Shown piece after piece: positions 11,534-27,257 of a stretch of DNA of 64,000 nucleotides; position 1 is the stretch's first letter; each line of letters begins with the position of its first letter. The notes below the pieces were generated by a model. It was not told where the DNA came from, did not search any database, and worked only from the letters and a program-made list of their open reading frames with translations. The stretch comes from Calditrichota bacterium. Lineage in GTDB: Bacteria; Electryoneota; AABM5-125-24; Hatepunaeales; Hatepunaeaceae. The DNA lies in contig VGIQ01000001.1 of the NCBI GenBank assembly GCA_016867835.1, positions 10,094 to 74,093 on the forward strand, in the 5' to 3' direction. Position numbers and translations under genes: made by a program.

Positions 11534-12979
11534 TTGGAAATCGGGAGCATCGTGGAGTTTCGCGAACCGATCGACCAGTTGGTGAACAGCCCGCAAAGGT
11601 TCACCTCACAACTCAAGTTCCCTGTGCCGGAGCGAATCAAAATCTACGATTCGACCCTGCGCGACGGCGAACAGATGCCGGGCGTCGCCTTTTCGCCGGG
11701 GCAGAAGTATCAGGTCGCCAAGGCGCTCTCGGAGATCGGCTGCGACATCCTCGACCTCGGTTTCCCCTATGCTGCGCTCTCCGATCGCTATGCACTACAG
11801 ATGATCGTCCAAGCCAAGCGGCTCGGCGAAATCCGCAAGGAGGTCGATCTGCTGGTGATGTGCCGTTCGACCCAGCAGGACATCGACGCGACCATTCAAT
11901 CGCTGCGCGACATCGACGTCGATATCAACGAGGTGACTTTCTTCATTTTCACCTCAGGCTCCGACCTGCACCTGAAGTATAAGATTGGCAAGACGCTCCT
12001 GAAGCGGGATGGGATCGATCCGGCGAAGTGGCTCGATCAGCCGGTCTCCTACTATCGCGATGCCAATATCCGGATGCAGTGCGACGCGATCCGGTATGCT
12101 CGCGAAAGAGGCGTCGAGCGGATTGAATTCGGCGGCGAAGACGGCTCCCGCGCCGACCTCGACTATACCATCGAACTTGCAAAGGCCGGCTACGATGCCG
12201 GCGGGACGCGCTACAGTTTTCCCGATACGGTCGGCTGCTTCACTCCGGAAGGCGTCGATTATTACATTCCGCGCATCGTCGCCGAGTTCCCGAATCGCGA
12301 TCTGGTCTGCCACTTTCATAATGACTTCGGTCTCGCGACGATCAACACCTTGCGCGCGATGTCGCATGGCCTCAACGTCCCGACCTGCACCGCCAACGGA
12401 ATGGGCGAACGGGCTGGAAACGCGCCGCTGCATCAGGTTACGGTTGCGTTGAAACTGCTCTACGGCGTTCACCTGCCACGTTTTCGTTACGAGAAGTTGC
12501 GTGAACTGAGGCAACTGGTCGAGGAGTTTTCGGGAATCCCGGTCTCGGCGCACGAGCCGGTCATAGGTGAGGGGGTCTTTACCCACGAGTCGGGCATTCA
12601 CACCGCGGGACTCTTAATCGACGCCTCGATCTATCAGGTGATTCCACCGGAATTAGTCGGTGCGCGCATCCGGTATGTCTTCGGCAAGCACTCCGGGCTG
12701 GCTGCGGTTAAGGCAGTGCTTGAGAAGCCCGAGTACCGGTCTGGCCTTGAGCGGGACGGAGTCGAAGTGAACGACGACCTGATCGAAGCGGTTACGCTCT
12801 TCGTCAAGGATGCCCGCCAGAAGCGGACCCGGAGCGACCAGTTCACCTCGATCACCGAGGCCTACTACCGCGAATACGACCGACTCGGCATATCGGAATT
12901 GCGGCTGGTGGAACTCGCTTCGACTATCGGGCGGCTGCTGAAAGAAGGCCACTTCAACCATGTGGAGAGGAAGAAGTAG
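11534..12979 (+). CDS. 2-isopropylmalate / citramalate / homocitrate synthase-family (DRE-TIM metallolyase) enzyme
   Basis: IYDSTLRDGEQMPGVAFS is the LeuA/CimA/NifV hallmark. HFHNDFGLATINTL is the metal-binding HxH region. 481 aa. The true start may lie upstream of 11534. Confidence 0.7.
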   Translation: MEIGSIVEFREPIDQLVNSPQRFTSQLKFPVPERIKIYDSTLRDGEQMPGVAFSPGQKYQVAKALSEIGCDILDLGFPYAALSDRYALQMIVQAKRLGEIRKEVDLLVMCRSTQQDIDATIQSLRDIDVDINEVTFFIFTSGSDLHLKYKIGKTLLKRDGIDPAKWLDQPVSYYRDANIRMQCDAIRYARERGVERIEFGGEDGSRADLDYTIELAKAGYDAGGTRYSFPDTVGCFTPEGVDYYIPRIVAEFPNRDLVCHFHNDFGLATINTLRAMSHGLNVPTCTANGMGERAGNAPLHQVTVALKLLYGVHLPRFRYEKLRELRQLVEEFSGIPVSAHEPVIGEGVFTHESGIHTAGLLIDASIYQVIPPELVGARIRYVFGKHSGLAAVKAVLEKPEYRSGLERDGVEVNDDLIEAVTLFVKDARQKRTRSDQFTSITEAYYREYDRLGISELRLVELASTIGRLLKEGHFNHVERKK

Positions 12980-12981
12980 TA

Positions 12982-13050
12982 GGACAGGCATTCCTGCCTG
13001 TCCGGAATTTGGCATGGGGATGGGACGGGACAGACAAGAATGTCTGTCCT
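12982..13050. repeat. composite REP-like element: paired hairpins GGACAGGCATTCCTGCCTGTCC and GGGACAGACAAGAATGTCTGTCC nested in an outer palindrome
   Basis: Perfect 9-bp stems with 4-nt loops. The same family recurs at 32420-32476, 32556-32640 and 40383-40455. Confidence 0.7.
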
Positions 13051-13077
13051 ACTGTACAGATTAGATAGGAGTTCACA

Positions 13078-14232
13078 ATGTCGCTTGACTGGCTGCCTCG
13101 CGAAGGGGGATTGAAGGACCATGACCTCTGGGGGGATGAGTTCTTTGGCGGTGAAGCCCCCACCGTCCGTTATGAACTGAAACCGGTTACAGCCCCTGAC
13201 GGCAACGTTGCCGAAGGCTTGTTCACGGCCTGGATCACGCTCGATAACCCGGCGCAGTTCAATTCCTACACCACGCACATGGTGAAGGGCGTCATCGCCG
13301 GGTTTCACAAAGCCTCGATGGATCGGCGGGTGGTGGCGATCGTCTTTACCGCGGTCGGCGAACGCGCCTTCTGCACCGGCGGGAATACCCGGGAGTATGC
13401 CGAATACTACTCCGGCCGGCCGCAGGAATACGGCCTCTATATGGACCTCTTCAACGCGATGGTCGATGCCATTCTGAACGCCAAGAAGCCGGTCATCTGC
13501 CGGGTCAACGGGATGCGCGTGGCGGGCGGTCAGGAGATCGGAATGGCCTGCGACCTCACCATCGCAGCCGATACGGCCGTCTTCGGCCAGGCCGGTCCGC
13601 GACACGGTTCGGCGCCGGATGGCGGATCGACCGACTTCCTCCCCTGGATGCTGCCACTCGAGCAGGCGATGTGGAGCTGCATCAGTTGCGAACTCTGGAG
13701 CGCTTACAAGATGGCGCGCTACGGCCTGGTGTCGAAGGTTGCGCCGGTGCTGGTTCGCGCGTCGGGATCGGAATCCCAACCTGCGCGCGAAAAGTTCATC
13801 CGCAACCCTTTGGTCATCACCGACCGCTATGTCGAAGAGGGCGAGATCGTCTATGGCGAACCGGTCACCGGCGCTGCTGCAGCGTTGGCTAAAGAGCAGT
13901 TTAAGGCAGCGACCTACGACTTCAGCCGGCTCGACGCCGAGGTCAACAGACTGGTCTGGACCTTCACTAACCTTTTCCCGGGCTGCCTCATCAAGTCGAT
14001 CGACGGCATCCGGCAGAAGAAGAAGTTCTGGTGGGATCAGACCAAACTTGCCAACCGGCACTGGCTGGCGACGAATATGATGGGCGAAGCGTTCCTCGGC
14101 TTCCACGCCTTCAATACCAAGAAACAGACCGGGAAGGACACTATCGATTTCATCAAGTTCCGGCAGTTGCAAGCGGAGGGGCATCCGTTCGACGCGGAAC
14201 TGATGGAAGCCGTGTTGGGAAAGAAAATCTAA
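13078..14232 (+). CDS. crotonase-superfamily enzyme of ring-hydrolase length (candidate 6-oxocyclohex-1-ene-1-carbonyl-CoA hydrolase-like; specific function unproven)
   Basis: Crotonase core (AFCTGGN ... KPVICRVNGMRVAGGQEIGMACDLTIAAD). 384 aa is much longer than canonical 260-aa hydratases and matches the long ring-cleaving members. The 460-aa minus-strand ORF 12865..14247 is its shadow. Confidence 0.55.
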   Translation: MSLDWLPREGGLKDHDLWGDEFFGGEAPTVRYELKPVTAPDGNVAEGLFTAWITLDNPAQFNSYTTHMVKGVIAGFHKASMDRRVVAIVFTAVGERAFCTGGNTREYAEYYSGRPQEYGLYMDLFNAMVDAILNAKKPVICRVNGMRVAGGQEIGMACDLTIAADTAVFGQAGPRHGSAPDGGSTDFLPWMLPLEQAMWSCISCELWSAYKMARYGLVSKVAPVLVRASGSESQPAREKFIRNPLVITDRYVEEGEIVYGEPVTGAAAALAKEQFKAATYDFSRLDAEVNRLVWTFTNLFPGCLIKSIDGIRQKKKFWWDQTKLANRHWLATNMMGEAFLGFHAFNTKKQTGKDTIDFIKFRQLQAEGHPFDAELMEAVLGKKI

Positions 14233-14299
14233 CCACAAAGAACACAAAGATCACAAAGATCATAGGGAATACTTGGTGTTCTTTGTGCTCTTCGTGGTG
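14230..14299. repeat. palindromic gene-junction repeat (AACTAACCACAAAGAACACAAAGA ... TGTTCTTTGTGCTCTTCGTGGTG), copy 1
   Basis: Imperfect 25-bp inverted repeat with an 18-bp loop. It begins within the stop codon of the upstream gene. The same family occurs at 16884, 17825, 18661 and 24202. Confidence 0.7.
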
Positions 14300-14310
14300 A
14301 AAAGGAAAAA

Positions 14311-15057
14311 ATGGGCATTCTGAAAGGGAAAACCGCCATTGTCACCGGCGGGTCGTTAGGGATCGGCGCCTCAGTCGCCCTCAAACTCGCCTCCGACGGC
14401 GCCGATGTGGCGCTCAACTACCGCAAGCATGCGGACGAAGCCGAAGCTGTCGCCGAACAGATCCGCACCATGGGCCGCCGGGCGCTGGTGATCCAGGCCG
14501 ACACATCGTCCTTTGCCGATGCCGAAGCGATGGTCGCTCGCGTCAAGGCGGAATGGGGCCGGGTGGACATCCTCGTCTGTAACGCGGGGATCACCAGAGA
14601 CGCGGTGCTCTGGAAGATGACCGAAGAGCAGTGGGACGCGGTGATCGGGACGAACCTGAAGGGCTATTTCAATTACGTCCGCGCGGCTGCGCCGGTGATG
14701 CGCGAGCAGAAGTACGGGCGGATCGTCTGCGTCACCTCGATCAATGGGCTGCGCGGCAAGTTCGGCCAGTCGAACTACGCGGCCTCCAAAGCCGGCATCC
14801 ACGGGCTGGTGAAGAGCGCCGCCAAGGAATTAGGGCGGTCGGGCGTCACCGTCAACGCCGTCGCGCCGGGGATGATCCTGACCGATATGATGGCTGCGCT
14901 GCCGGAGGAGGTCAAGCAGAAGGCGGTGGACGAGACGGCGGTGGGCAGATTGGGGGAGCCGGACGACATCGCGCATGTGGTCAGTTTCTTCTGCAGTGAC
15001 TTCGCAAAGCATGTGACGGGGGAGATTATCAAGGTGGATGGGGGGCAGTATATCTGA
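14311..15057 (+). CDS. short-chain dehydrogenase/reductase (3-oxoacyl-ACP reductase-like; candidate hydroxyacyl-CoA dehydrogenase)
   Basis: TGGSLGIGASVA (TGxxxGIG), NAG, and Y..K catalytic motif (SNYAASKAG). 248 aa. Confidence 0.85.
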   Translation: MGILKGKTAIVTGGSLGIGASVALKLASDGADVALNYRKHADEAEAVAEQIRTMGRRALVIQADTSSFADAEAMVARVKAEWGRVDILVCNAGITRDAVLWKMTEEQWDAVIGTNLKGYFNYVRAAAPVMREQKYGRIVCVTSINGLRGKFGQSNYAASKAGIHGLVKSAAKELGRSGVTVNAVAPGMILTDMMAALPEEVKQKAVDETAVGRLGEPDDIAHVVSFFCSDFAKHVTGEIIKVDGGQYI

Positions 15058-15069
15058 CTTGATCTCCAT

Positions 15070-15250
15070 TCGCCCCCCCTTTGATTCCCCCCCGCAGAGC
15101 GGGGGGGAGAGAAGGCAGAAGCGCGCCTGCGACTATTACTCCCCCGCGCAAAGCGGGGGGGAGTGAAGATGGAACGTTGTAGTGTATTCGCAACCGCCTG
15201 ACAAGGGGGCAAGACGCTCTACTCCCCCGCGCAAAGCGGGGGGGAATTAA
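15070..15250. repeat. three GC-rich hairpin repeats (CCCCCGC-N4/5-GCGGGGG), two of them near-identical 27-mers (TACTCCCCCGCGCAAAGCGGGGGGGAG)
   Basis: Hairpins at about 15083-15103, 15138-15162 and 15220-15244. The same hairpin core occurs 4x in tandem inside the CDS at 19552-19712. Confidence 0.7.
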
Positions 15251-15264
15251 AGGGGGGGCTGGAT

Positions 15265-15702
15265 GTGCATTGGAGTGGAATTAGGGATGGAAAATCCCCA
15301 ATGAGAGCAATCCCAAAGCGCTTGCCTAAAACTAAGCCTCATTCCGTCAATTTCGCCCGCAGCCTACGCCGTAAGATGACTGACGCCGAGCGGCGGCTGT
15401 GGGCAAGGCTGCGGTCAGGGCGAATAAGCGCCAAATTCCGGCGTCAGGAGCCTATCGGATCTTACATCGTGGACTTTGCTTGCATAGAAAGAGGATTGGT
15501 CATAGAACTTGACGGCTCGCTGCATTACACCGATGAAGGCAAGAAGAGGGATGAAGTTCGGGACGCCTACCTGCGGTCGTTGGGATTCATGGTGTTGAGG
15601 TTCTCAGATCGGGATGTGATGAACAATATCGAGGGGGTATGTCAGGCGATCCTTGAGCAAGTTCAATGGAAAAACGAAGAAAAGGAAGAGTCAGGAAAAT
15701 GA
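15265..15702 (+). CDS. DUF559 / Vsr-like endonuclease-domain protein
   Basis: MTDAERRLWARLR ... KFRRQEPIGSYIVDFACIERGLVIELDGSLH is the DUF559 signature. Lower GC than neighbours. The start could be M at 15301. Confidence 0.7.
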   Translation: MHWSGIRDGKSPMRAIPKRLPKTKPHSVNFARSLRRKMTDAERRLWARLRSGRISAKFRRQEPIGSYIVDFACIERGLVIELDGSLHYTDEGKKRDEVRDAYLRSLGFMVLRFSDRDVMNNIEGVCQAILEQVQWKNEEKEESGK

Positions 15703-16886
15703 GTAACATCCTCGCCCTATCCGCTTGCCGGACTCCGATGGGGTCGTTCGGCGGGACGCTGAAGGATATGGCATCCTACGACATCGGAGCCGTGGCTGTG
15801 AAGGCCGCCGTCGAGCGCGCCGGACTGACGCCGGAGCAGATCGACGACGTGATCCTTGGCTCGTGCCGTCAAGCCGGCAATGGGCCTAATCCGGCTCGCA
15901 CGGCATCCGTCCGGGGCGGCATCCCGACCTCGGTGCCGGTCATCACCCTCAATATGGCATGCCCGTCGGGGATGCGAGCCATCCAGTTCGCGGCTAATGA
16001 AATCGCCTCCGGGATGGCTTCCACGGTGCTGGTCGGCGGCTTCGACTCGATGAGCACCATCCCCTATCTCCTTAAGGGAGCGCGCTGGGCTGGGTTCAAG
16101 ATGGGCGACCGCAAACTGGAAGACGGCTGGTCCGACGCCACCGACCCGCTCATCGGGCAGGGCATGGGCGCCACCGCTGAAAACCTCTTCGACAAGTGGC
16201 AGATCCCCCGCCGCGACCAGGATGAGTACGCGGCAGCCTCGCACATCAAGGCGCATACCGCGTGGGAGAACGGCTGGTTCGACGAGGAGGTTGTCCCCAT
16301 CACCTTCCCGCCCGACAAGAAGACCGGTGAGTCGGTGGTCTTCGCCAAAGACGAGACGATCCGCTTCCCTGTGGATGCCGAGAAGATGGGGAAACTGCCG
16401 CCGGTTTTCCGTAAGGACGGGACGGTAACAGCGGGCAATGCCTGCGGGATGTCGGACGGGGCTTGCGGGTTGGTGCTGACGTCATCAGAACGCGCTTCGG
16501 AACTGGGCGCCAAACCGCTCTTTTCGGTGGTCGAGATGGCATTCACCGCCACCGAACCGGCAACTATGGGCGAAGGTCCCGGCATCGCTATCCCTGCGGT
16601 GCTGAAGAAAGCCGGGATGACCCTTTCCGACATCGACCTGATCGAAGTCAACGAAGCCTTCGCCATTCAGGTGCTGGTGAACGAAAAGATGGTCGGCTGG
16701 GACCGGGATAAACTGAACATCCACGGCGGAGCCATCGCGTTAGGGCATCCGACCGGCATCTCGGGCGCGCGGATCGCGGTGACGCTCTATCATGCGCTGA
16801 AGCGGCTGAATAAGGAGATCGGGCTGGCTTCAATCTGCGGCGGAGGAGGTGTGACCGGGGCAATGATCATCAAGAGGGAAAACTAA
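15699..16886 (+). CDS. acetyl-CoA C-acyltransferase (thiolase II)
   Basis: MSNILALSACRTPMGSFGG at the N-terminus. Cys region NMACPSGMRAI. C-terminal GHPTGISGARI and ICGGGGVTGAM. Preferred start is ATG at 15699 (GGAAGAG/AGGAAA upstream) rather than 15666. Confidence 0.85.
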   Translation: MSNILALSACRTPMGSFGGTLKDMASYDIGAVAVKAAVERAGLTPEQIDDVILGSCRQAGNGPNPARTASVRGGIPTSVPVITLNMACPSGMRAIQFAANEIASGMASTVLVGGFDSMSTIPYLLKGARWAGFKMGDRKLEDGWSDATDPLIGQGMGATAENLFDKWQIPRRDQDEYAAASHIKAHTAWENGWFDEEVVPITFPPDKKTGESVVFAKDETIRFPVDAEKMGKLPPVFRKDGTVTAGNACGMSDGACGLVLTSSERASELGAKPLFSVVEMAFTATEPATMGEGPGIAIPAVLKKAGMTLSDIDLIEVNEAFAIQVLVNEKMVGWDRDKLNIHGGAIALGHPTGISGARIAVTLYHALKRLNKEIGLASICGGGGVTGAMIIKREN

Positions 16887-17366
16887 CCACAAAGGCACAA
16901 AGAACACAAAGACTTTCTTGTCATAAATGATAGAGATCATTCCTGAGGATATAGACCTGACCGGCAAGAATTTGTTGATGCGGCCTTTCAGGTTCACAAA
17001 GCGCTTGGGTCGGGGCTTCTTGAATCAGCCTACGAATCCTGCATCGCGCATGAGATTGTGTCGCGAGGGCTCGATGACAAGACGCAGGTGATTCTTCCCG
17101 TCATCTACAAAGGAGTCAGGATCGATGCGGGATTTCGATTGGATTTGGTCGGCGAAGACAAGGTCATGTCGAACTGAAGGCGGTAGAAGAACTCCACCTG
17201 ATTCGTGAAGCACAATTGATCACATATCTTCGACTCTCGGGCATTCGGCTTGGTTTCCTAATGAATTTCAACGCTAAACTTATTAAGAACGGAATTAGGC
17301 GAATTGTAGTATGATAAGTTTCCTCGAAACATATTCTTAGTGTTCTTCGTGCTCTTTGTGGTAACA
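16884..17366. repeat. palindromic gene-junction repeat, copy 2, with halves split by a ~420-bp insertion (GxxExxY pseudogene)
   Basis: Left half ACCACAAAGGCACAAAGAACACAAAGA at 16887-16913. Right half TTAGTGTTCTTCGTGCTCTTTGTGGTAAC at 17338-17366. The two halves are reverse complements. Confidence 0.65.
16927..17330 (+). pseudogene. GxxExxY-family (PD-(D/E)xK nuclease-like) gene disrupted by at least two frameshifts
   Basis: Frame 1 gives AAFQVHKALGSGLLESAYESCIAHEIVSRGL ... RIDAGFRLDLVGEDKV, then a stop. The conserved continuation VELKAVEELHLIREAQLITYLRLSGIRLGFLMNFNAKLIKNGIRRIVV is in another frame. The N-terminal DLTGK... is also out of frame. Confidence 0.6.
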
Positions 17367-17371
17367 TCCCG

Positions 17372-17827
17372 ATGGAAATCTACGAACGCAATATAAACGC
17401 TGCGGTCCGGCGCGACGGAGACGATCATATCGTCACCAAAGCCTCGCTGCTTGACCTGAACCACAACATGCGAGTCGAAATCCGCGTCTGCATCGCCAAC
17501 CGGACGGTCGTCGCAGCCGAGGCGCAAATGGTGAAAGCCCCCTTTGGCATCTGCGACCAGACCGCCGCCTTTGCCCGCAATTTGACCGGACTCAGGATCG
17601 AGCGGGGCGTAACGCGCAAAGTCGCCGAAGTGATGGGTCGGTCGTCGGGCTGCACCCACCTTTACGAACTGGCCATCGAAGCCGTGCGCCTATCATCGAA
17701 TGTGCTGTTAGGCTTCGAAACCGGCGACCGCGAATGGCGTGAACGGCGCTTGACAGACGAGGAGTTCATCGAGCGGGCGAAGGGATTCCTGGCCAACTCT
17801 TGCCTGCCGTTTAGAATTGAAAACTAA
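17372..17827 (+). CDS. hypothetical protein (possible DUF2889-like; SGCTHLYEL motif)
   Basis: 151-aa ORF between two palindromic junction repeats. Family assignment is from memory of a Cys/His motif only. Confidence 0.4.
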   Translation: MEIYERNINAAVRRDGDDHIVTKASLLDLNHNMRVEIRVCIANRTVVAAEAQMVKAPFGICDQTAAFARNLTGLRIERGVTRKVAEVMGRSSGCTHLYELAIEAVRLSSNVLLGFETGDREWRERRLTDEEFIERAKGFLANSCLPFRIEN

Positions 17828-17875
17828 CCACAAAGAGCACAAATAGCACAAAGAAATGTGATTTTGTGATCTTTA
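17825..17875. repeat. palindromic gene-junction repeat, copy 3 (degenerate right half)
   Basis: AACTAACCACAAAGAGCACAAATAGCACAAAGAAATGTGATTTTGTGATCTTT. Confidence 0.5.
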
Positions 17876-17899
17876 AGCGCCTTGTAATGGAAGAAAAGA

Positions 17900-18667
17900 A
17901 TGGATTCCCATTATATCAAGATCGATCCGGACGACCACCGCCTCGACATCATTCTCTCCCATCCACCCGTCAACATTCTGACTGGCGCGGTGATGAAGGA
18001 GATGATCCGAGTTTTGCAGGACGCCTCCTCCGATCCCCACCTGCGAGCCGTCGTCATTCGGTCTGAGGGGAAAGCCTGGTCGGCCGGGGCGGACGTGAGT
18101 GAACACCTGCCCGGGCAGTTTGAACCCATGCTCGACACCTTCGGCGAATTGTGCGAACTGGTGCGCACCTATCCGGTGCCAACCGTTGCTGCGGTGGACG
18201 GGCTCTGCCTTGGCGGCGGCTGTGAACTGGCGCTAATGTGCGATTTTGTACTGGCGTCGGAGCGCGCCAAGTTCGGTCAGCCGGAGATCAAAGTCGGTGT
18301 CTTCCCTCCCGCGGCTTGTGCCCATTTCGCGATGAAGATGGGCTGGCAGAACGCGATGGAGGTGATCCTGACCGGGGATGTCTTCAGTGCAGAAGACGCA
18401 GCAAAAATGAAATTGGCAACGAAGGTGTTTCCGGTGGATCGTTTTTCGGACGAAGTGGACCGATTCGTTGACCGGATCATTTGCAACAGTGGAGTTGTCC
18501 TTCGAGTGGCAAAGAGAGCGGCGCTCGAAGGGATGCGCCTTTCGCCCGAAATGGCGGCACAGGAATCGGATCGCATCTATCGGCAGGAACTGATGACGAT
18601 GGCGGACGCGGTCGAGGGGCTAAACGCCTTTATGGAAAAGCGCGAACCAAACTGGAAAGACAACTAA
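17900..18667 (+). CDS. enoyl-CoA hydratase/isomerase (crotonase family; candidate dienoyl-CoA hydratase)
   Basis: RAVVIRSEGKAWSAGADV and GLCLGGGCELALMCDFVLASE are crotonase oxyanion-hole motifs. 255 aa. Confidence 0.8.
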   Translation: MDSHYIKIDPDDHRLDIILSHPPVNILTGAVMKEMIRVLQDASSDPHLRAVVIRSEGKAWSAGADVSEHLPGQFEPMLDTFGELCELVRTYPVPTVAAVDGLCLGGGCELALMCDFVLASERAKFGQPEIKVGVFPPAACAHFAMKMGWQNAMEVILTGDVFSAEDAAKMKLATKVFPVDRFSDEVDRFVDRIICNSGVVLRVAKRAALEGMRLSPEMAAQESDRIYRQELMTMADAVEGLNAFMEKREPNWKDN

Positions 18668-18725
18668 CCACTAGGCACGCAAAGAGCGCCAAGAATTCTT
18701 TGTGGTCTTTGTGTTCTTGGTGGTA
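18661..18725. repeat. palindromic gene-junction repeat, copy 4
   Basis: AACTAACCACTAGGCACGCAAAGAGCGCCAAGAA ... TTCTTTGTGGTCTTTGTGTTCTTGGTGGT. Confidence 0.6.
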
Positions 18726-18738
18726 AAAAGAGGCCGAA

Positions 18739-20025
18739 GTGTTTTCTCAATTCAAATCCTGGTATGAAGAACGGCACGCTTACGCTAAAGGGTGGAAGGC
18801 GCGCACCGGCGGCAAAGTGATGGGCTGCTTTTGCAGTTATGCCCCCGAGGAAATCCTCGTCGCGGCGAACTGGCTCCCGGCGCGCGTGTTAGGCGGTCAC
18901 CAGCCCCAGGACGTCGCCGAAAAATATATGTTCGGGATGTATTGTCCCTTTTCCCGCGACGTCCTGGCGCAAGGGCTTAAAGGGCGCTACGACTATCTCG
19001 ACGGCATCCTGCTGACGCAAAGTTGCATTCACCTGCGGCAGTCGTTCAACTCATGGCAGATGCACGTTCCGGTGCCGTTCAATTACTACATCTATATGCC
19101 GCAGAAGGTTCAGACGCCTCATGCAGTGCCCTATCACCGGAGCGAACTGGCGAAGTTTCGCGCGGCTCTGGAGGCCTACGACGGGACAACGCTAAGTGAA
19201 GACGACCTGAACCGCGGCATCGCCGTCGTCAACGAGAACCGCCGCTTGATGCGCGAAGTCTATGAGTTTCGCAAAGGCGACAGCCCCAAGGTGACCGGCA
19301 CCGAAGCGATGTGGATGACCACCTCGAGCATGTGGGTTGATAAGGAGGAACATTCCGCCGAACTGCGGCGGGTGCTGAAGGAACTGCCCAACCGAAGCCT
19401 TACCCGCCAGACCGGGGCGAAATTGATGATCATCGGCTCGGAGAACGACGACATCCCGTTCATCGAGATGGTCGAAAAGGTCGGCGCGACGGTGGTGATG
19501 GACGAACACTGCACCGGGACGCGGTATTTTTGGAATCAATGTGAGGTTCCCCCCCTTCAATCCCCCCCGCTCAGCGGGGGGGAAGTGCGCGAGGATAAAT
19601 CCCCCCCGCTTAGCGGGAGGGAAGTGCGCGAGGATAAATCCCCTCCGCTTAGCGGGAGGGAAGTGCGCGAGGATAAATCCCCCCCGCTTAGCGGGGGGGA
19701 CGAGAAGGGGGGGCGCGACCTGATGACCGCGATCGCCCAGCGCTACATCGACCGCCCGACCTGCCCGGTGAAAGACTGGGAGGATCGCACCCGCTTCGAG
19801 CATATCCTGCGTCTGGCGCGGGAGTGGGAGGTGCAAGGCGCCATCATCATCCAGCAGAAGTTCTGCGACCCGCACGAGTGCGACATGGTGCCGCTAAGAG
19901 CCTTCCTGAACGAGCACGACATCCCGAACCTGATGCTCGAGTTCGACGCTACCACGCCGCTGGGGCCGTTTAGGATCAGGGTAGAAGCGTTCTTGGAGAT
20001 GATCGGGCAGGAGGAGTTGTTTTGA
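18739..20025 (+). CDS. 2-hydroxyacyl-CoA dehydratase / benzoyl-CoA reductase subunit family protein (HgdB/BcrB-like), carrying an in-frame 4x13-aa repeat insertion
   Basis: GTG start. Family-typical Cys-containing N-terminal region (GCFCSYAPEEIL ... LTQSCIHLRQS) and C-terminal FCDPHECD. 428 aa. Confidence 0.65.
   Translation: MFSQFKSWYEERHAYAKGWKARTGGKVMGCFCSYAPEEILVAANWLPARVLGGHQPQDVAEKYMFGMYCPFSRDVLAQGLKGRYDYLDGILLTQSCIHLRQSFNSWQMHVPVPFNYYIYMPQKVQTPHAVPYHRSELAKFRAALEAYDGTTLSEDDLNRGIAVVNENRRLMREVYEFRKGDSPKVTGTEAMWMTTSSMWVDKEEHSAELRRVLKELPNRSLTRQTGAKLMIIGSENDDIPFIEMVEKVGATVVMDEHCTGTRYFWNQCEVPPLQSPPLSGGEVREDKSPPLSGREVREDKSPPLSGREVREDKSPPLSGGDEKGGRDLMTAIAQRYIDRPTCPVKDWEDRTRFEHILRLAREWEVQGAIIIQQKFCDPHECDMVPLRAFLNEHDIPNLMLEFDATTPLGPFRIRVEAFLEMIGQEELF
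19552..19712 (+). repeat. 4 tandem copies of a 39-bp unit (AAGTGCGCGAGGATAAATCCCCCCCGCTTAGCGGGAGGG) inside the CDS, each containing a CCCCCGC-TTAG-GCGGG hairpin
   Basis: Translates in frame as SPPLSGGEVREDK / SPPLSGREVREDK x4. Copies differ at 1-2 positions. The hairpin core is identical to the intergenic repeats at 15070-15250. Confidence 0.8.
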
Positions 20026-20026
20026 A

Positions 20027-20068
20027 TGTAGAATGCAGAATGTAGAATGTAGAATGAGGAACGAGGGT
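20027..20068. repeat. short tandem repeat (GAATGTAGAAT)n
   Basis: gaatgtagaatgcagaatgtagaatgtagaatgaggaacgagg lies directly after the stop of the preceding gene. Confidence 0.6.
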
Positions 20069-20137
20069 TATTGCTTTGGAGGGGTATAGGTGTTATCTTT
20101 CAGAAAATCAGAATTTCTGAACGGTAGAGGGATTACA

Positions 20138-20407
20138 ATGAAAGTTCAACTACGTTCGAGACGCCAGATCACGCTTCCGGAAGAGGCGGTCAGCGAGTTG
20201 GGAATCAATGAGGGGGATGAGTTCATCGTGAAAGTCGAGGGCGATTCGCTGCGCCTGCTGCCGGTCGTTACCATTCCTCGGGATGAAGCCTATCTCTTCA
20301 CACCGGAATGGCAGAGGGCGCTTCAAACCGCCGAGAAGGAACTGCGCGAGGGCGAATACGAGACCTTCGCGAGCGTCGATGACCTGCTGAAGGACCTGAA
20401 CGACTGA
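20138..20407 (+). CDS. AbrB/MazE/SpoVT-family antitoxin
   Basis: MKVQLRSRRQITLPEEAVSELGINEGDEFIVKVEGDSLRLLPV is a swapped-hairpin AbrB-type motif. The ORF could start at 20090. Its stop overlaps the next start (ATGA). Confidence 0.6.
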   Translation: MKVQLRSRRQITLPEEAVSELGINEGDEFIVKVEGDSLRLLPVVTIPRDEAYLFTPEWQRALQTAEKELREGEYETFASVDDLLKDLND

Positions 20408-20673
20408 TGCAGATCATCCGGCTGAGTCAATTCAAGCGGATGTGGAAGAAACTGCCTGCGGACGTTCAGGCGAGGGCAGCGAAAGCGATCCGCCTGCTTG
20501 CCGCCGACCGGTCGCATCCGTCGCTTGGCTTGAAGCGGCTGCAACGGCTGCCTCAATACTTGGAGGTGCGCATCGACCGCGACCACCGGTTGATATGCCA
20601 GATGGGGAGCGAGGTTATCGTGCTGGTGGCGGTAGGGAGGCATGAGGTGTTGGGGAGGGTGAGGCAAAAGTGA
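20407..20673 (+). CDS. RelE/ParE-superfamily toxin (type II TA)
   Basis: 88-aa basic protein translationally coupled to the antitoxin. The pattern LPADVQARAAKAIRLLAAD ... YLEVRIDRDHRLI ... VLVAVGRHE resembles the RelE/ParE fold. Confidence 0.5.
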   Translation: MQIIRLSQFKRMWKKLPADVQARAAKAIRLLAADRSHPSLGLKRLQRLPQYLEVRIDRDHRLICQMGSEVIVLVAVGRHEVLGRVRQK

Positions 20674-20737
20674 AGCTAAACATCATCATTCCTTCGGAAG
20701 ATGGAATTCAGATCTACATTTCTTTGTAAAAACAGGA

Positions 20738-21742
20738 ATGAAGGCACTTTATTCAAATTGCATTTTCTGCGGCTGCGACTTAGACGAGACCAATAGATCT
20801 CGCGAGCATATCGTTCCACAGATCATAATGGGATCATTCATCAGTCAAGATGTCTGCAGATGCTGTAACAGCAAATTGAGCGAGGCGGATAAGCTTATAC
20901 TGAATGATCCACGGATTATTCAAGCTATAAACTGTCTTGAACTTTCTGATATTCAAAATAACATCCTGAGAATAGGTGAAACCATAGGAACAGATACACA
21001 GGATGGCGCCGAAAGAAGGTTTCATATGAAGGATGGGCACCCTATACTTATTCCCAAGCCATCTTTTACGGGTGAAAGAGTCGCGGATATAGATAACACC
21101 TTGCCTCTACTGCGCACATTGTTATCCAGAGACAAGGAGCTGAATTGGCCAAACGAAAAGGCAGGCCGATACATCGGTGAAATCGTAACGCCAGAATTTC
21201 TCAAACTCAAGCCGCATGAGAGTATCGATCTTCGAGAAGCGGGATACTCAATCGAAATGAGGCAGATTGGAAACATAGAGACACATTTTCCTGCCATTTC
21301 GTTTCAAGATCATAGATTGATCGCTAAAATAATATACGAGATCAGTTTCTATCTGCTTTCGCCCGAGATCGCTGAGTCAGCGATGAAAGATCTTGACTAT
21401 TATAGAGATGTAGCTTACGGAAGTATTGAAAGAGAAGAAGGCAGATTGTTTACAAGATCGGTGGAGCTTCTTAACGAACCCAACTATCTTCATAGGATTC
21501 AGATCTCATTCTCTGCCTCAAGCTTTCTTACGGTTGACATCGACCTCTTTGCAAGTGTAAACTATCACGCTATCATCAGAACTGATAGAACCTATCCGCT
21601 GCCAATTCTAAATTCCCGGCAGGTTACCGCTGTCGGGTTGGGGATGACCTTTAACGATACATCGAATAGACACTTTGCGATAAGGTACTTCAATGATGCA
21701 GATTGGGCGGTCGAAAGATTCGATGACGGAGAAGAACAGTGA
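20738..21742 (+). CDS. HNH-endonuclease-domain protein with ~270-aa uncharacterised C-terminal region
   Basis: CIFCGCDLDETNRSREHIVPQ ... CRCCNSKLSE is the HNH motif (CxxC, catalytic His in EHIVP, second CxxC). 334 aa. The region is markedly AT-richer than the window. Confidence 0.65.
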   Translation: MKALYSNCIFCGCDLDETNRSREHIVPQIIMGSFISQDVCRCCNSKLSEADKLILNDPRIIQAINCLELSDIQNNILRIGETIGTDTQDGAERRFHMKDGHPILIPKPSFTGERVADIDNTLPLLRTLLSRDKELNWPNEKAGRYIGEIVTPEFLKLKPHESIDLREAGYSIEMRQIGNIETHFPAISFQDHRLIAKIIYEISFYLLSPEIAESAMKDLDYYRDVAYGSIEREEGRLFTRSVELLNEPNYLHRIQISFSASSFLTVDIDLFASVNYHAIIRTDRTYPLPILNSRQVTAVGLGMTFNDTSNRHFAIRYFNDADWAVERFDDGEEQ

Positions 21743-22890
21743 CAATATCAACCCAAATGATCAATACTTGGACAGCTTCTTGGAAGCAACTGAGATACCT
21801 CGAGCGAGTGGGAGCATTACTTGCCATAGCAACTCTGACCGCCTCCTTATTTTATTGGGCGGGGAATGGATTCGCCGAGATACAAAATACACTTGGCTAC
21901 TATCCATCTGGAGTTGAAGAAGCGCTAGAGCAAAACCGCGAACTGGACCTAAAATATCCAACACGCCCGGGTCTAAGCAAGGATCTGGGAGAGGTTGCGG
22001 GAGTCTTGCTTTTCTTCATCGGAATTTGTCTAATCTTGTCATTGATTGATGCAGCCGTGAAATTGCCAATCTTGGCGGGATTGTTGGTCGCCCCAATATC
22101 TTTCCTATCGGGCAAGGGAACCACACATGAATACCTCATTCTATCCTTGCTCAACAATAACGCTATTGGTGGCAGAGGCGTGCTTTCACTTATCATGATA
22201 ACGCTTTCCGGAGTATTTGCGATGAGGGCTTTTCGGAAATCTTGGAGATTAAATTTCTCATTGCTAACTGCACTTGGAGTATTCGCGTCTTGGATAGGTA
22301 ATTTCATGGGTCAAGAATACAGCTATCGCGCCGGTATTTTGACGGCAGCTGCTGGAATTCTCCTTATCATAGCGCCAAAATCACTTAGGGATTCTTGTCT
22401 GACTTCCATCGAAGTGACTGGCGAAATATCTAAAGGTAGGCTTGACAGCTTGATTCAAAAAGCCACATTGTCTACCAGAATATTTGGCATTGCCTATTCT
22501 ATTCTTGGGCTTATTCTTGTTCTGGGAGTTGCAGGAACTATGGGAGATGAGTTTCTACAAGGAATCAAGAGAGGGGCACCTGTTAGTGATTCAAGCGGAA
22601 TCTTAGTGCTGGCCGTCATTCAGATATTGATAGGGATAGCTTTGCTTATGCTCTCTTTGATATCATCTAATCCAGCAATGCGGCGTCGATATCAGTTTTC
22701 CATCATCATAGGGATCATCTGGATCTTATTGCCTTATGAGGCACTTGACTTGTTAGCCCGATTGACCGATCCCGGCTTAAATGCTTTTGTAAAACTGTTG
22801 ACGTCTATTGGAATGATTATTGTACTCAAGACCGCAATTAGAGCTCGGGACGCCATTTATATGAATGTCAGCAATTCCAAGGAAACATAA
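21739..22890 (+). CDS. polytopic membrane protein (about 8-10 predicted TM helices), unknown function
   Basis: GTG start overlapping the upstream stop (GTGA). Repeated hydrophobic helices (VGALLAIATLTASLFYW, VLLFFIGICLILSLI, LPILAGLLVAPISFL, ILLIIAP, IFGIAYSILGLILVLGVAG, ILVLAVIQILIGIALLMLSLI, IIIGIIWILLPY, IGMIIVL). Low GC. Confidence 0.6.
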   Translation: MTISTQMINTWTASWKQLRYLERVGALLAIATLTASLFYWAGNGFAEIQNTLGYYPSGVEEALEQNRELDLKYPTRPGLSKDLGEVAGVLLFFIGICLILSLIDAAVKLPILAGLLVAPISFLSGKGTTHEYLILSLLNNNAIGGRGVLSLIMITLSGVFAMRAFRKSWRLNFSLLTALGVFASWIGNFMGQEYSYRAGILTAAAGILLIIAPKSLRDSCLTSIEVTGEISKGRLDSLIQKATLSTRIFGIAYSILGLILVLGVAGTMGDEFLQGIKRGAPVSDSSGILVLAVIQILIGIALLMLSLISSNPAMRRRYQFSIIIGIIWILLPYEALDLLARLTDPGLNAFVKLLTSIGMIIVLKTAIRARDAIYMNVSNSKET

Positions 22891-22911
22891 TCCGCATCAT
22901 TCGGAATACTA

Positions 22912-24204
22912 ATGTCCACCTACCCCACCGAACCCCTGAAGTGCTGGGCTAAAGCCAAGGAACTTCGGGATAACTACTATCGCGACTACGCCACCGCCCA
23001 CGAGTGCGGCGGGTTGCGCTGGACCGGCGGCGCTTGGTCGTTCGACGCCATCCCCGCCGGGCTAGGGCGCGACGTCTGGCCCATCACCGGCGAGCCTTAC
23101 GGCGCGTCGATGGCCTTCAACAAGCCATTCAGCCAGCGCGCCCTCGAAGCCGCCGAAGCCAAGGGCTGGGCGCGCGATCTCTGCAGTTATATGCGCAACT
23201 ACTGGGGGTCGATGTATCTCGACGAGTTCAACTTCGGCGGGAAGTATCCGAAGCCCGACTTCGCCTTTCAGGATCATATCTGCTGCTCCCACGCCAAGTG
23301 GTATCAGCATGTCGCGGAATACAAGCAGATCCCCTACTTTTGTATCGACGTTTCGGTCGGTCCCTATCACCTGATCGACGACCACAAACTGAACTTCGTC
23401 GTCGGGCAGATGCACGAGTCGATTGACTTCCTCGAGCGCATCACCGGCCGCCGCTACGACGACGAACTGCTGATCGAAGCGGTGCAGAACGAGACGCGAG
23501 CCACCTCCGCCTGGGCCGAGGTCTGTGCCCTCAACAAGGCGATCCCGGCACCGCTCGACGAAAAGACGATGTATTCGCTCTACGTCCTCGGGACGCTCAA
23601 CAAGTCGAAGAAGGAGTTCGCCGACTTCTACGAGGAATTGCGGGACGAGGTTGCCGACCGCGTGGCGCGCGGCATCGCTGCCGTTCCGAGCGAGCGTTGC
23701 CGGCTGATGTCCGATACCCAGCCGCCGTGGGGCTTCTTGAAGATATTCCGCTACCTCGAAGGCTTCGGCGCGGTCTCGGTCGGGAGCCTTTACACCTTCG
23801 CCCTAATCGGCATCTGGGAAGAGAAGCCGGACGGCAGTTGGGGCGCGCGGACAACTCCGATGGCCCTCGGCTTGCCGATGGATACCCGCGATCAGGCGCT
23901 CCGGATACTGGCGGACTGGAACCTCTCCAAACCCGAATGGCAGCATTTCTATGACGCAAGTTTGAAGTCGAAGATGATGCTGCGGATCGTCAAGGAATGG
24001 AAACTCGACGGCGTCATGCTGCACCTGAATCGCGGCTGCGAAGGCCTCTCCTGCGGCATAATGGAAAACCGCCTCGCCATCGCCGAAGCCGGCGTGCCGG
24101 TGATGACCTTCGAAGGCAATATGGGCGACGAGCGGGAGTTCGACGAAGCGAAGACCAAAGACCGCATGGATGCGTTCATGGAGACGCTGGGACTTAGGAA
24201 TTAA
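22912..24204 (+). CDS. 2-hydroxyacyl-CoA dehydratase / benzoyl-CoA reductase subunit family protein (HgdA/BcrC-like)
   Basis: [23 protein letters not shown] and [10 protein letters not shown] are Cys-motif regions typical of the HGD-D family. 430 aa. Confidence 0.65.
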
Positions 24205-24270
24205 CCACAAAGAACACAAAGATCACAAAGATATCCTGGTGCTCTTGGTGTGCTTTGTGGTGAGAATAAT
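24202..24270. repeat. palindromic gene-junction repeat, copy 5
   Basis: AATTAACCACAAAGAACACAAAGATCACAAAGA tatcc TGGTGCTCTTGGTGTGCTTTGTGGTGAG. Confidence 0.65.
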
Positions 24271-24286
24271 CATTAGGGATAGATAA

Positions 24287-25084
24287 TTGATTACAGCCGG
24301 ACTTGACCTGGGGTCGAAGACCACCAAGGTCGTCATCCTGCGCGACGGCGAAGTGCTGGCTCGCGTGAAGCGGTTTTCGGGGTTCGAACAAGAGGTCGTC
24401 GCGGCTGAAGCCTTGCGGGAAGCCTGCGCCCTCGCTGGCATCGCCGAGAGCGAACTGTCCCGTATCGCGGCAACCGGAGCCGGCCGCCGGGTAGCGCCAT
24501 TCGCGCAGGATCTCCTGACCGAGGTAGGCGCCGCGGCGCGGGGCGCCATCGCTCGCAACGACGCAGTGCGCACTGTGCTCGACGTTGGAGCCGAGGAAGG
24601 ACGCGCCATTCTGGTCAATCCCGACGGCCGGGTGAAGGACTTTGCGGTCAATGAGAAGTGCGCCGCCGGAGCGGGCACGTTTATCGAGTCGATGTCGCGC
24701 GCCCTCGAAGTGAAACTCGAGGAGTTCGGCCCGCTCGCGCTGACTTCGCAGCAGGCGGTGCCGATGAATGCCCAATGCGCAGTATTCGCCGAGAGCGAGG
24801 TGGTATCGCTGCTCCACGCCCGGACGCCGAAGCAGGACATCGCTCGCGCAGTGCTCGACGCCATCGCCAGCCGCATCGTCTCGATGGCCCGGCGAGTCAG
24901 CATCACACCGGCGGTCGTGCTAATGGGAGGGATGGCTCACAATACCGGCTTCATTGTATCGCTGAAGCGGACGCTCGAGATGGAGATCGAAATCCTATCC
25001 GATCCTGAGTTTGTCCCGGCCGAGGGAGCCGCGTTCCACGCCGCCGAGCGCTTTGCCGAAGCCGAAGTGCCGGCGGTGGCGTAG
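24287..25084 (+). CDS. BadF/BadG/BcrA/BcrD-type ATPase (dehydratase activator / reductase ATP-binding subunit), copy 1
   Basis: MITAGLDLGSKTTKVVIL is the acetate/sugar-kinase-fold N-terminus. NEKCAAGAGTFIE is the [4Fe-4S]-bridging Cys region. 265 aa. Non-ATG (TTG) start. Confidence 0.75.
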   Translation: MITAGLDLGSKTTKVVILRDGEVLARVKRFSGFEQEVVAAEALREACALAGIAESELSRIAATGAGRRVAPFAQDLLTEVGAAARGAIARNDAVRTVLDVGAEEGRAILVNPDGRVKDFAVNEKCAAGAGTFIESMSRALEVKLEEFGPLALTSQQAVPMNAQCAVFAESEVVSLLHARTPKQDIARAVLDAIASRIVSMARRVSITPAVVLMGGMAHNTGFIVSLKRTLEMEIEILSDPEFVPAEGAAFHAAERFAEAEVPAVA

Positions 25085-25085
25085 G

Positions 25086-25135
25086 AAGTAAGCGGGTAGG
25101 CGAGTAAGCGGGTAAGCGGGTAAGTGAACAGGCGG
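25086..25135. repeat. short tandem repeat (GTAAGCGG / GTAAGCGAG)n
   Basis: gtaagcgggtaggcgagtaagcgggtaagcgggtaagtgaac. An inverted copy of the motif lies at 25530-25550 (cttactcgcttactc). Confidence 0.6.
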
Positions 25136-25144
25136 GAGTAGAAA

Positions 25145-25521
25145 ATGGGGACGGTCTTCAGGAAGGTGGAGGATATAGAGGTCTGGAAGCGGGCATGCAG
25201 GCTTGCGGTCGATCTCTATTCCCTCTGCGATCAGGAGCCGCTCGCCAAGGATTGGGGGCTTCGAGATCAGTTGCGGCGTGCGGCAGTTTCCATTGCATCG
25301 AACATCGCGGAGGGATATGAGCGAAACTCGCAAGCGGAATTCAGGAGATATCTCTTGATCGCCAAAGGTTCCTGCGTGAATTGAAGACGCAACACTACAT
25401 CCTGCAGGCATCCGGTAAGATTAGCGAGGCAGATTTGACAACCCTGATCGAACGCTGCATAGAACTATCTCAGATGATCGGCAGCCTCGCCTCCGCCATT
25501 CGCAAACAACATCTTGCATAA
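25145..25521 (+). pseudogene. four-helix-bundle (23S rRNA intervening-sequence-type) protein gene with a -1 frameshift
   Basis: The ORF ends ...[16 protein letters not shown]. The conserved continuation [43 protein letters not shown] is in the next frame (shift at about 25375-25381). Confidence 0.5.
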
Positions 25522-25568
25522 TAACTAACGCTTACTCGCTTACTCATTCAAATCAACAACAGTCCGCA

Positions 25569-26459
25569 TTGGAGGAGTCAGCAATGTCAGTCGAATACTG
25601 GCGGTGGAAGGAATACAACTGGCGCAACGAAGCGGTCGATCCGCGCGGCGGAGGCATCCTCTCCGGAGGCGTCGATGTCGGATCGGTCTCATCGCAGGCG
25701 GTGGTGCTCTACGAAGGCAATCTCTACGCCTACAGCAATATGCGCACCGGCTCCGACTCGCCTGACAGCGCCCGCAAGGCGTTCGAGTGGGCGCTCGAAG
25801 GCACGGGACTGCAGGTTGGCGATATCCCCTTCATTGTCGGCACCGGTTACGGGCGGGTCAATGTGCCGTTTGCTCATAAAGCCATCACCGAGATTGCCTG
25901 TCATGCCCGCGGTGCCAATTATATGTATGGCCCGGCTGTCCGGACGCTGCTCGATATGGGCGGGCAGGACTGCAAGGCGATCCGCTGCGACGAACGGGGC
26001 AAGGTGACGAACTTCCTGATGAACGACAAGTGCGCTGCCGGGACCGGACGCGGGATGGAAGTCTTTGCCGATTTACTCGCAATCCCCATTGAGCAGGTCG
26101 GCGAAATGTCGTTCCAGGTCGAGAGCGAGCCGACGCCGGTCTCTTCGACCTGTGTCGTCTTCGCCAAGACCGAAGCCGCCGGGCTGCTCCGGTCCGGCTG
26201 GCCGAAGAACCTTGTCCTCGCGGCCTACTGCTCGGCGATGGCGCATCGCGTCGTTTCGCTGATCGAGCGGCTCGGTATGGAAGGCGGGTTCGCGATCACC
26301 GGCGGCATTGCCAAGAACAGCGGCGTCGTCCGGCGCCTCGAAAAGGAACTCGGCGTTACCTCGATGACCAGTTCCTACGACACTCAGATCGCGGGTGCGC
26401 TCGGCGCGGCACTATTTGCGAAGGCGCTGCTTGAGAAGGGCTTGGGGCTCAAGGCTTAG
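25569..26459 (+). CDS. BadF/BadG/BcrA/BcrD-type ATPase, copy 2 (distinct paralogue)
   Basis: GVDVGSVSSQAVVL and NDKCAAGTGRGME. 296 aa. The likely start is ATG at 25584 (MSVEYW). Confidence 0.75.
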   Translation: MEESAMSVEYWRWKEYNWRNEAVDPRGGGILSGGVDVGSVSSQAVVLYEGNLYAYSNMRTGSDSPDSARKAFEWALEGTGLQVGDIPFIVGTGYGRVNVPFAHKAITEIACHARGANYMYGPAVRTLLDMGGQDCKAIRCDERGKVTNFLMNDKCAAGTGRGMEVFADLLAIPIEQVGEMSFQVESEPTPVSSTCVVFAKTEAAGLLRSGWPKNLVLAAYCSAMAHRVVSLIERLGMEGGFAITGGIAKNSGVVRRLEKELGVTSMTSSYDTQIAGALGAALFAKALLEKGLGLKA

Positions 26460-26484
26460 GGCTCAAGATCACTCAAGGGGTGAG

Positions 26485-26905: not shown

Positions 26906-26906
26906 T

Positions 26907-27188: not shown

Positions 27189-27189
27189 T

Positions 27190-27252: not shown

Positions 27253-27257
27253 GTCAA

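Follow-up and report, generated by a model that had tools for sequence, protein, structure and literature searches.

In a 64,000-nucleotide stretch of DNA from a Calditrichota bacterium (a metagenome-assembled genome; contig VGIQ01000001.1; the whole stretch is called the window here), a broken GxxExxY gene lies in the loop of a split palindromic repeat between a thiolase gene and a DUF2889 (PF11136) gene. This copy is very probably a decayed member of a conserved family of elements in which a small gene and a hairpin belong together. Our explanation as a whole, to which we give a probability of about 55%, is that it is a dead, hairpin-bracketed GxxExxY nuclease cassette of a widespread selfish family that resembles the intervening sequences (IVSs) of rRNA genes and is lodged here in the spacer of an mRNA. 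The GxxExxY gene-in-hairpin element appears to be undescribed in the searchable literature; the window copy is an ordinary decayed member, and the interest lies in the class that it reveals. What is conserved is the association itself: intact GxxExxY genes sit in the loop of a hairpin built from triple heptads, beside copies that carry no cargo, and follow the direction of the host operon.

The gene becomes readable when exactly three frames are joined (Table 1), which gives a GxxExxY product of 129 amino acids. This product matches TIGR04256 (GxxExxY) over profile positions 4–116 of 116 (E = 5.8e-38; 129.8 bits, cut-off 35) and PF13366 (PDDEXK_3; E = 3.1e-37; 127.9 bits, cut-off 22), which bears out the preliminary description of the locus as holding a GxxExxY gene of the PD-(D/E)xK fold. 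That description counted at least three frames; several are indeed needed, but no more than three, and the segment beginning VELKAV runs on to the TGA stop codon. Translating and aligning, as it had proposed for finding the indels, places two 1-nt deletions, and it is these that deprive the window copy of an uninterrupted open reading frame (ORF). The second of them falls one codon ahead of the E-x-K catalytic motif. The joined product is colinear with intact homologues (identity is 56–63% in the multiple alignment and reaches 65% by BLASTP), and its conceptual translation retains all family-invariant residues (among them G30-L-L-E33-S-A-Y36, D73, E83 and K85), deviating at only two nearly invariant positions (A13G and P92L). 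The window holds no second GxxExxY copy.

The loss of a single base in each case, once within an A/T run, could be taken to mean that misassembly produced the frameshifts and that the gene is intact, the objection by which the preliminary description had itself proposed to stand or fall. However, positions 16870–17380 are base-for-base identical, both deletions included, in the Logan assemblies of SRR16108672 and SRR7990334, which represent two other sequencing runs and a different assembler, and a Joint Genome Institute (JGI) contig agrees with the 3' part of this interval. The genes flanking the element are intact, and the other two nested genes of the window, broken as well, are reproduced exactly by an independent assembly. 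Since both deletions recur in independent assemblies, the gene is a real pseudogene, decayed as first described, and an assembly artefact is extremely improbable. Programmed frameshifting was likewise rejected: two shifts would be required, a slippery X XXY YYZ site is found at neither, and the intact homologues are unshifted.

The pseudogene occupies, as had been reported, precisely the loop of one of the palindromic repeats that form a family in the window; the halves, put at ~420 bp apart, enclose a measured loop of 422 nt. Each arm consists of three tandem CACNAAG units, and their pairing is imperfect only by two mismatches and one bulge. When 16880–17372 is folded as RNA, the closing stem consists of both arms in the minimum free energy structure as well as in the centroid structure. 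The outer stem reads CTAAC on the left, the family consensus being T-T-N-A-C...G-T-N-A-A, and the DUF2889 start codon follows downstream of the element at 17372. The element is thus intergenic, with neither an intron nor an intein detected. An intrinsic terminator was considered and ruled out because the promoter/terminator scan found no promoter-like or terminator-like site at the element. An Rfam scan of 13500–27500 at E ≤ 1 returned three weak matches below gathering score, none of them at the hairpins.

Five copies of the palindrome family occur in the 64 kb, one of them with a gene, and every copy starts at the stop codon of the upstream gene (AAnCTAA followed by CCAC at four of the five, GAATTAA followed by CCAC at the fifth). 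The window has six matches to the arm pattern where shuffles predict 0.00, and the left arms of the hairpins at 24205 and 14233 are identical. Taken within the window alone, one filled and four unfilled copies would fit the view that the hairpins are host regulatory structures and that an unrelated mobile gene landed in one of them by chance. What is seen around GxxExxY genes elsewhere makes such a chance landing very unlikely.

In a scan of one genome per species, the 80 best tblastn matches were taken as loci, the best locus being 57–60% identical to the window protein. They are distributed over Planctomycetota, Chloroflexota, Acidobacteriota, Bacteroidota, Proteobacteria, Verrucomicrobiota and Cloacimonadota and include three archaeal bins of methanogens or anaerobic methanotrophs (ANME; Methanosarcinales/Methanothrix). 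Of the 76 loci with flanks of sufficient length, 87% have the gene spanned by an inverted repeat that scores at least 14, as opposed to 0/374 control positions (the same loci, with positions shifted by 1.6–3.2 kb; maximum score 13.5). The canonical arm order was found at 49/83 loci by a strict three-unit pattern. The pattern by which arms were defined fixes three of the seven positions of a unit. The family arms have an outer stem TTNAC...GTNAA, inside which three (sometimes four) C-R-C-N-R-A-G units follow one another with a period of 7–9 nt and face their complement on the opposite side. The units vary with lineage (CACAGAG, CGCGAAG, CACCAAG, CGCGGAG, CACGACG and others), the mean G+C of loci with CAC-type and CGC-type units being nearly equal. 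For example, ACCACGAAGGGACGAAG...CTTCGTCCCTTCGTGGT enclose P0027 and ACCACCAAGACACCAAG...CTTGGTGTCTTGGTGGT enclose P0036, two ~60% identical relatives on unrelated contigs. The two arms vary together: for 12 of 21 unit pairs changes are found in both arms, and pairing holds in 93.6% of cells, compared with 83% in shuffles and 23–53% when the partner is slid. Since the bracketing is conserved and the arms co-vary, gene and arms are one conserved unit. This overturns the earlier picture of the hairpin as an independent host feature that was hit by a gene, and it speaks against a chance landing, given that the same arm type, with co-varying units, brackets intact homologues of 50–60% identity in about ten phyla and in archaea. 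One protein, P0110, is found in identical form on 31 contigs; all represent a single locus across samples, and no element present at several loci emerged from it.

The distance between the arms is bimodal, at 4–92 nt without a gene and 373–603 nt with the gene inside, and empty hairpins with matching units occur in the flanks of many loci, the archaeal ones included. In L030, an empty and a filled hairpin, compared like the L095 junction described below with outer flanks that are not identical, match at 43/45 nt to the left and at 43/50 nt to the right and differ by an ORF of ~372 nt at the apex; the start codon of the filled copy lies within the innermost unit. The short palindromes are the cargo-less form of a gene-plus-arms element family. 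By a hand tally of the per-locus pattern strings, the simple nested layout of arm, gene and arm is exact at 35/84 loci, the innermost arms are nested at 55/84 (these 35 included), and a complete hairpin lies directly upstream of the gene at 12/84. At 39/61 elements an upstream stop codon lies no more than 16 nt from the first unit, and at 11 elements it is part of the outer stem (TAAC or TGAAC).

The history of such a site can be read from its relatives. The arrangement of thiolase, DUF2889 and enoyl-CoA hydratase recurs at 22 metagenomic loci (L089–L110), with the DUF2889 protein 58–80% identical. The thiolase/DUF2889 junction is bare in L096, with a 19-nt spacer, has a short spacer without a hairpin in L102 and L105, and holds an empty CACNAAG-type hairpin (TGAACCACCAAGACACGAAGACACCAAG...CTTCGTGTCTTTGTGTCTTTGTGGTGA) in L095. 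In L089, L093, L097, L098, L099, L101, L104, L107 and L109 it holds an insert of ~440–535 nt with a gene for the 23S-rRNA-IVS protein (PF05635, E = 9e-38), enclosed by inverted arrays of other heptads (ACAAGTT, ATCAAGT, GAATGTTT and GTGTTGG). The ATCAAGT class is also found, with similar cargo, at the DUF2889/enoyl-CoA hydratase junction in L093, L095 and L103, so arms and cargo appeared together at different sites. The PF05635 cargo at these orthologous junctions is in several cases broken, by frameshifts in L089 and L095b and by a nonsense codon in L098. The thiolase gene of L095 (1255–2422) matches in two frames (residues 8–339 and 348–406), either because the host gene is frameshifted or because the contig is in error, and the broken cargo on the same contig is therefore read with caution. 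At nearly all occupied junctions the first unit stands 0–2 nt from the host stop codon (TAG followed by CAAGT, TGA by ACCAC, TAA by CCAC), despite a bare spacer of 19 nt, which points either to stop codons as targets of insertion or to selection for insertions there. The host stop codon may itself belong to the outer stem of the element. Operon spacers, then, are colonised repeatedly by hairpin-plus-small-gene elements, which then decay. The preliminary description had called the window copy a clean example of a selfish gene targeting a hairpin; selfishness fits the related junctions, which are bare, hold an empty hairpin or hold another element, whereas the targeting is an inference.

What might the protein do? 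A search of PDB sequences with the family profile matched 0 chains. The AlphaFold2 model of P0003, a 65%-identical homologue, has a predicted local distance difference test (pLDDT) score of 95.9, and the solved folds nearest to it are all PD-(D/E)xK nucleases: Cas4 SSO0001 (10.2 in the structure comparison), the BpuSI nuclease domain (8.6), Pcal Cas4 (8.5) and Hjc (6.7). Across the GxxExxY family D, E-x-K and Q do not vary, and model and residues together support a nuclease fold with its catalytic residues for the family. PF13366/TIGR04256 is very large, with more than 5,500 relatives at E ≤ 1e-10, and none of the PADLOC and PHROGs families matches the GxxExxY protein. A survey of the superfamily lists the function of PDDEXK_3 as 'unknown' and notes multiple horizontal transfers (PMC3424549).

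The element has a gene of ~125–130 codons in its loop, on the strand of the host operon, and stands directly after a host stop codon; without a detectable promoter of its own, the gene would probably be expressed by read-through from that operon. Its product would be a small nuclease, similar to Cas4, restriction enzymes and Hjc, that acts on the hairpin DNA of the family. Most likely, hairpins without cargo would be broken by it at the apex or close to it and then repaired on the template of a gene-bearing copy, a step in which the arms of 25–50 bp would serve as homology and the gene would be copied in. It is possible, then, that the gene enters a pre-existing hairpin by such homing, or that the short hairpins derive from gene-bearing copies or are mobilised by them. 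Homing is our leading guess, held tentatively. It would explain why presence and absence in L030 differ at the apex, and how a site becomes protected (insertion splits the palindrome). It would account as well for the homogenisation of the arms in any one genome and for the decay that follows invasion. At the RNA level, the stem of ~27 bp would be a substrate for enzymes of the RNase III type, as in rRNA IVSs. In the window, the two 1-nt deletions have killed the nuclease and left a remnant that behaves as a hairpin repeat with a loop of 422 nt. A still wider proposal, in which the C-R-C-N-R-A-G hairpins form a pan-prokaryotic family, GxxExxY proteins serve it as homing or mobilising nucleases, and the 23S IVSs and the mRNA-spacer cassettes with IVS-protein genes are sister branches of one element class, is at present doubtful.

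Several points weigh against our reading. The 80 loci, being the best tblastn matches, are biased towards intact genes. The link between unit type and protein similarity is weak: loci that share a unit type have proteins 58.3% identical, as opposed to 54.7% for those that do not (permutation p < 0.0005). No conserved sequence was found in the loop or apex of the empty hairpins, and hence no candidate recognition site. (A loop motif CATAGGG, seen in the copy at 14233 and in L003, was rejected as a general feature across empty hairpins.) The strand bias of the GxxExxY gene, which supports our reading (in 42/46 cases with both neighbours on one strand it runs with them, in 4 against them), was judged from neighbours defined as stop-to-stop ORFs. 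In selected RNA helices, G·U mismatches normally outnumber A·C mismatches; on the sense strand of the arms they do not (82 G·T and 86 A·C), so selection on the stem at the RNA level is unsupported; their complementarity may come from copying rather than from selection. In the searchable literature, no paper assigns a function to the GxxExxY family or connects it with hairpins, although curators of the family may have made the observation informally. Finally, ~14% of loci have a whole hairpin upstream or on each side of the gene, as in L111, a Calditrichota contig, where an intact gene of 60% identity (P0005, with CACAAAG arms) stands between two whole hairpins with arms that nearly match the empty copies of the window. 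This layout fits an arrangement of repetitive extragenic palindromes (REPs) with REP-associated tyrosine transposases (RAYTs) as well as it fits homing.

In such a REP/RAYT-like arrangement, the short hairpins would be mobile non-autonomous units and the GxxExxY protein a trans-acting enzyme of mobilisation or maintenance, whose gene does not home; the window copy would be a lost mobiliser. Besides the layouts with a hairpin on each side, or with a hairpin on one side and an arm on the other, this would suit the five hairpins to a single gene in 64 kb and the many empty hairpins in the flanks of other loci. It would also suit L067, where one genome has two paralogues with differing units, a situation similar to the multiple RAYT/REP classes of systems of REP doublets that form hairpins (REPINs). 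However, the single split hairpin dominates, both in exact layouts and by innermost arms, and PD-(D/E)xK nucleases are not known to cut and paste hairpins. Moreover, GxxExxY genes are multi-copy and horizontally scattered (PMC3424549), as opposed to the single-copy, vertically inherited RAYTs. We therefore consider this alternative unlikely.

A different possibility is that the element acts at the RNA level, as IVSs do: the stem, cut by RNase III, would excise the insert from the mRNA or insulate it, GxxExxY would be a passenger (a toxin, or a protein of defence or RNA processing), and movement would be left to host recombination or an unidentified transposase. The architecture is that of rRNA IVSs, the stems of which are RNase III substrates (PMC4990558). 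The ~27-bp closing stem in the RNA fold and the strong co-orientation with host transcription point the same way, as does the fact that hairpins of the same kind carry PF05635 in the window and at orthologous junctions and a third type of cargo, a small ORF, in L012. In this last locus (4006–5102), two CGCAGAG/CACAGAG hairpins each surround a small ORF of ~75–110 aa on the opposite strand. No Pfam family matches these ORFs, whose products have a hydrophobic stretch at the C-terminus, and the arm type is thus found with two kinds of cargo or more. However, the mismatch spectrum given above lacks the G·U excess expected of a selected RNA helix, Rfam does not match the hairpins nor PADLOC or PHROGs the protein, and the invariance of the catalytic residues across the family argues for a nucleolytic role. 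Since the spread of the element would also be left unexplained, we regard a purely RNA-level account as quite improbable; RNase III processing may nevertheless coexist with homing or with a REP/RAYT-like mode of mobilisation.

Returning to the nuclease cassette in the window, the element has company there (Table 1). Two further nested elements carry genes of the IVS protein family between other inverted heptad arrays. The gene of the first is broken by the loss of 1 nt at ~25375 (Gly codon of the KGSCGEL motif), and a related element in L095 (2945–3388) has a deletion in that same codon; the gene of the second has an in-frame TAG at 26791–26793. All three nested small genes of the window (3/3) are thus pseudogenes, and an independent Logan assembly is identical over 24884–27159, which covers the latter two elements.

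Table 1. Coordinates of the GxxExxY element, its relatives and the other nested elements within the window
Feature	Position	Strand	Remarks
Thiolase stop codon TAA	16884-16886	+	Ends gene 15666-16886; abuts the left arm
Left arm CCACAAAGGCACAAAGAACACAAAGA	16887-16912	+	Three tandem CACAAAG: 16888-16894, 16896-16902, 16905-16911
Right arm TCTTAGTGTTCTTCGTGCTCTTTGTGG	17335-17361	+	Reverse complement of three units (CTTAGTG, CTTCGTG, CTTTGTG); pairs with the left arm
GxxExxY pseudogene, segment 1 (MIEIIPEDIDLTGK)	16927-~16968	+	ATG start, frame 1; N-terminus aligns with P0005 MNPIPENLNRIAHEIVDA
Frameshift 1	16966-16973	+	1-nt deletion within AAGAATTTG (A/T run); exact base not assignable
GxxExxY pseudogene, segment 2 (..FVDAAFQVHKALGSGLLESAYES...LDLVGEDKV; FVDAAFQVH...GEDKV)	~16968-17167	+	GxxExxY motif and catalytic Asp
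Frameshift 2	17165-17168	+	1-nt deletion, third base of an Ile codon, GTC AT^ GTC GAA
GxxExxY pseudogene, segment 3 (VELKAVEELHLIREAQLITYLRLSGIRLGFLMNFNAKLIKNGIRRIVV; VELKAV...RRIVV*)	17168-17314	+	TGA stop 17312-17314
Split copy with gene in loop	16887-17361	.	GxxExxY pseudogene inside
Cargo-less hairpin, intact	14233-14297	.	13-nt loop; after the stop of gene 13078-14232; DNA fold z = -6.3
Cargo-less hairpin, intact	24205-24260	.	4-nt loop; after the stop of gene 22912-24204; z = -5.4
Degenerate copy	17828-17885	.	Left arm intact, right arm eroded; after the DUF2889 stop codon
Degenerate cargo-less hairpin, eroded	18667-18724	.	After the enoyl-CoA hydratase stop codon
Second nested element	25085-25550		Inverted GTAAGCG arrays; PF05635-like 23S_rRNA_IVP gene ~25147-25510
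Third nested element	26446-26902		Inverted GCTCAAG/GCTTAAG heptad arrays; PF05635 gene 26485-26880, Pfam E = 9e-26

A cargo-less hairpin with a 37-nt loop at 30479–30579 is made of GTGAGCG/GTAAGCG heptads, the unit class of the arms of the second nested element, and the four-helix-bundle elements therefore also have empty counterparts in the genome. Other palindromes of the window are of a different make. Palindromes of the C7GC...GCG7 type, with arms of 38 nt that are 87% complementary, lie at 15072–15259, just upstream of a DUF559 gene (15265–15702; PF04480, E = 2.7e-36, a Vsr-like endonuclease fold). This gene and the start of the thiolase gene overlap. A further small gene of nuclease type thus stands beside dispersed palindromes. 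An array of the same type is found in frame at 19541–19723, inside the ORF at 18739–20025 for the D-component of 2-hydroxyglutaryl-CoA dehydratase (PF06050); the SPPLSGGEVREDK repeats that it encodes separate one half of the PF06050 domain from the other, and independent contigs break within the array. Intergenic palindromes resembling GGACAGGCATTCCTGCCTGTCC, with arms of up to 27 nt and 96% complementarity, occur at 12978–13053, 32450–32587 and 40382–40456 and have no sequence relation to the heptad hairpins.

For annotation, elements of this kind explain some of the recurrent 'intergenic' gaps of ~450 nt and the small broken ORFs in operons; the window has three such gaps, and the orthologous junctions have about a dozen. 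The arms of the GxxExxY protein's own element are a concrete biochemical substrate to offer it, and the association provides a hypothesis for how IVS-like elements move. If the wider proposal of a pan-prokaryotic family is true, PF13366 would gain a function, the spread of IVS-type elements would be explained, and a new kind of mobile element would be recognised that targets the apices of hairpins behind stop codons.

How does the element compare with known systems? It has the inverted repeats of a miniature inverted-repeat transposable element or of a transposon with terminal inverted repeats, but such an identity was rejected because no flanking direct repeat (target-site duplication) is present; the outermost 5 nt of the elements are complementary to each other (TTCAC/GTGAA, TGAAC/GTTCA, TTAAC/GTTAA). 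An integron attC cassette was rejected as well: a gene does lie inside a split hairpin, but the arms lack a GTTRRRY core site, and no integron-type array was found among the ORFs inspected. The protein differs from Cas4 and from minimal PD-(D/E)xK enzymes (SSO0001, Pcal Cas4, Hjc), the aligned core amounting to ~83–94 residues at 19–21% identity. In the case of Cas4, the match spans about half of chains of ~200 residues, and the window has no CRISPR context.

The likeness to homing endonuclease genes lies in a small putative nuclease gene in the middle of its site, an apparent unoccupied form of that site and the splitting of a palindrome, as well as in a cycle of invasion, decay and loss and in arms that are available as homology for repair copying. 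I-Ssp6803I is a homing enzyme with a PD-(D/E)xK fold. Unlike homing endonuclease genes, the GxxExxY gene is found outside introns and inteins, its target would be a hairpin repeated at many loci, and the sequence at the apex is not conserved. With REP/RAYT (REPIN) systems the element has in common dispersed intergenic palindromes just downstream of genes, a small gene flanked by copies of them, and the possibility of several repeat classes in one genome. It differs from them in that the protein is not a Y1/HUH transposase, PD-(D/E)xK being the sole family matched, that the gene as a rule lies within a single split hairpin and not between complete REPs, that the gene family is multi-copy and horizontally scattered, and that the repeats consist of three tandem heptads.

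The closest known system is the ORF-bearing IVS of 23S rRNA genes in Leptospira, Coxiella and Xanthomonas. Unlike these, the window element sits between protein-coding genes of an operon rather than in an rRNA gene, and no rRNA motif was found near any of 111 loci, nor a signature motif within 4 kb of any GxxExxY locus examined. Its cargo is a PD-(D/E)xK nuclease (PF13366) instead of the four-helix-bundle S23p protein (PF05635), its units belong to the C-R-C-N-R-A-G class, and its mismatches give no sign of RNA-level selection. A paper on rRNA insertions in the candidate phyla radiation (CPR) mentions 23S_rRNA_IVP only. In Coxiella, the IVS is a selfish element of 428 nt with a small decaying ORF, ahead of which stand three tandem heptamers (GACAGAT); RNase III excises it, cutting at the start of the first repeat, and where rRNA IVSs come from and how they move is called unclear (PMC4990558). 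The GxxExxY element resembles these IVSs in its design: both are selfish inserts of ~430–490 nt, with terminal inverted repeats that close a stem, about three tandem heptamers and a single ORF of ~120–130 codons, prone to decay, in the loop and on the strand of the host transcript. Both are distributed sporadically and horizontally, and both have short versions without an ORF. Indeed, the two neighbouring nested elements of the window hold the IVS protein family itself.

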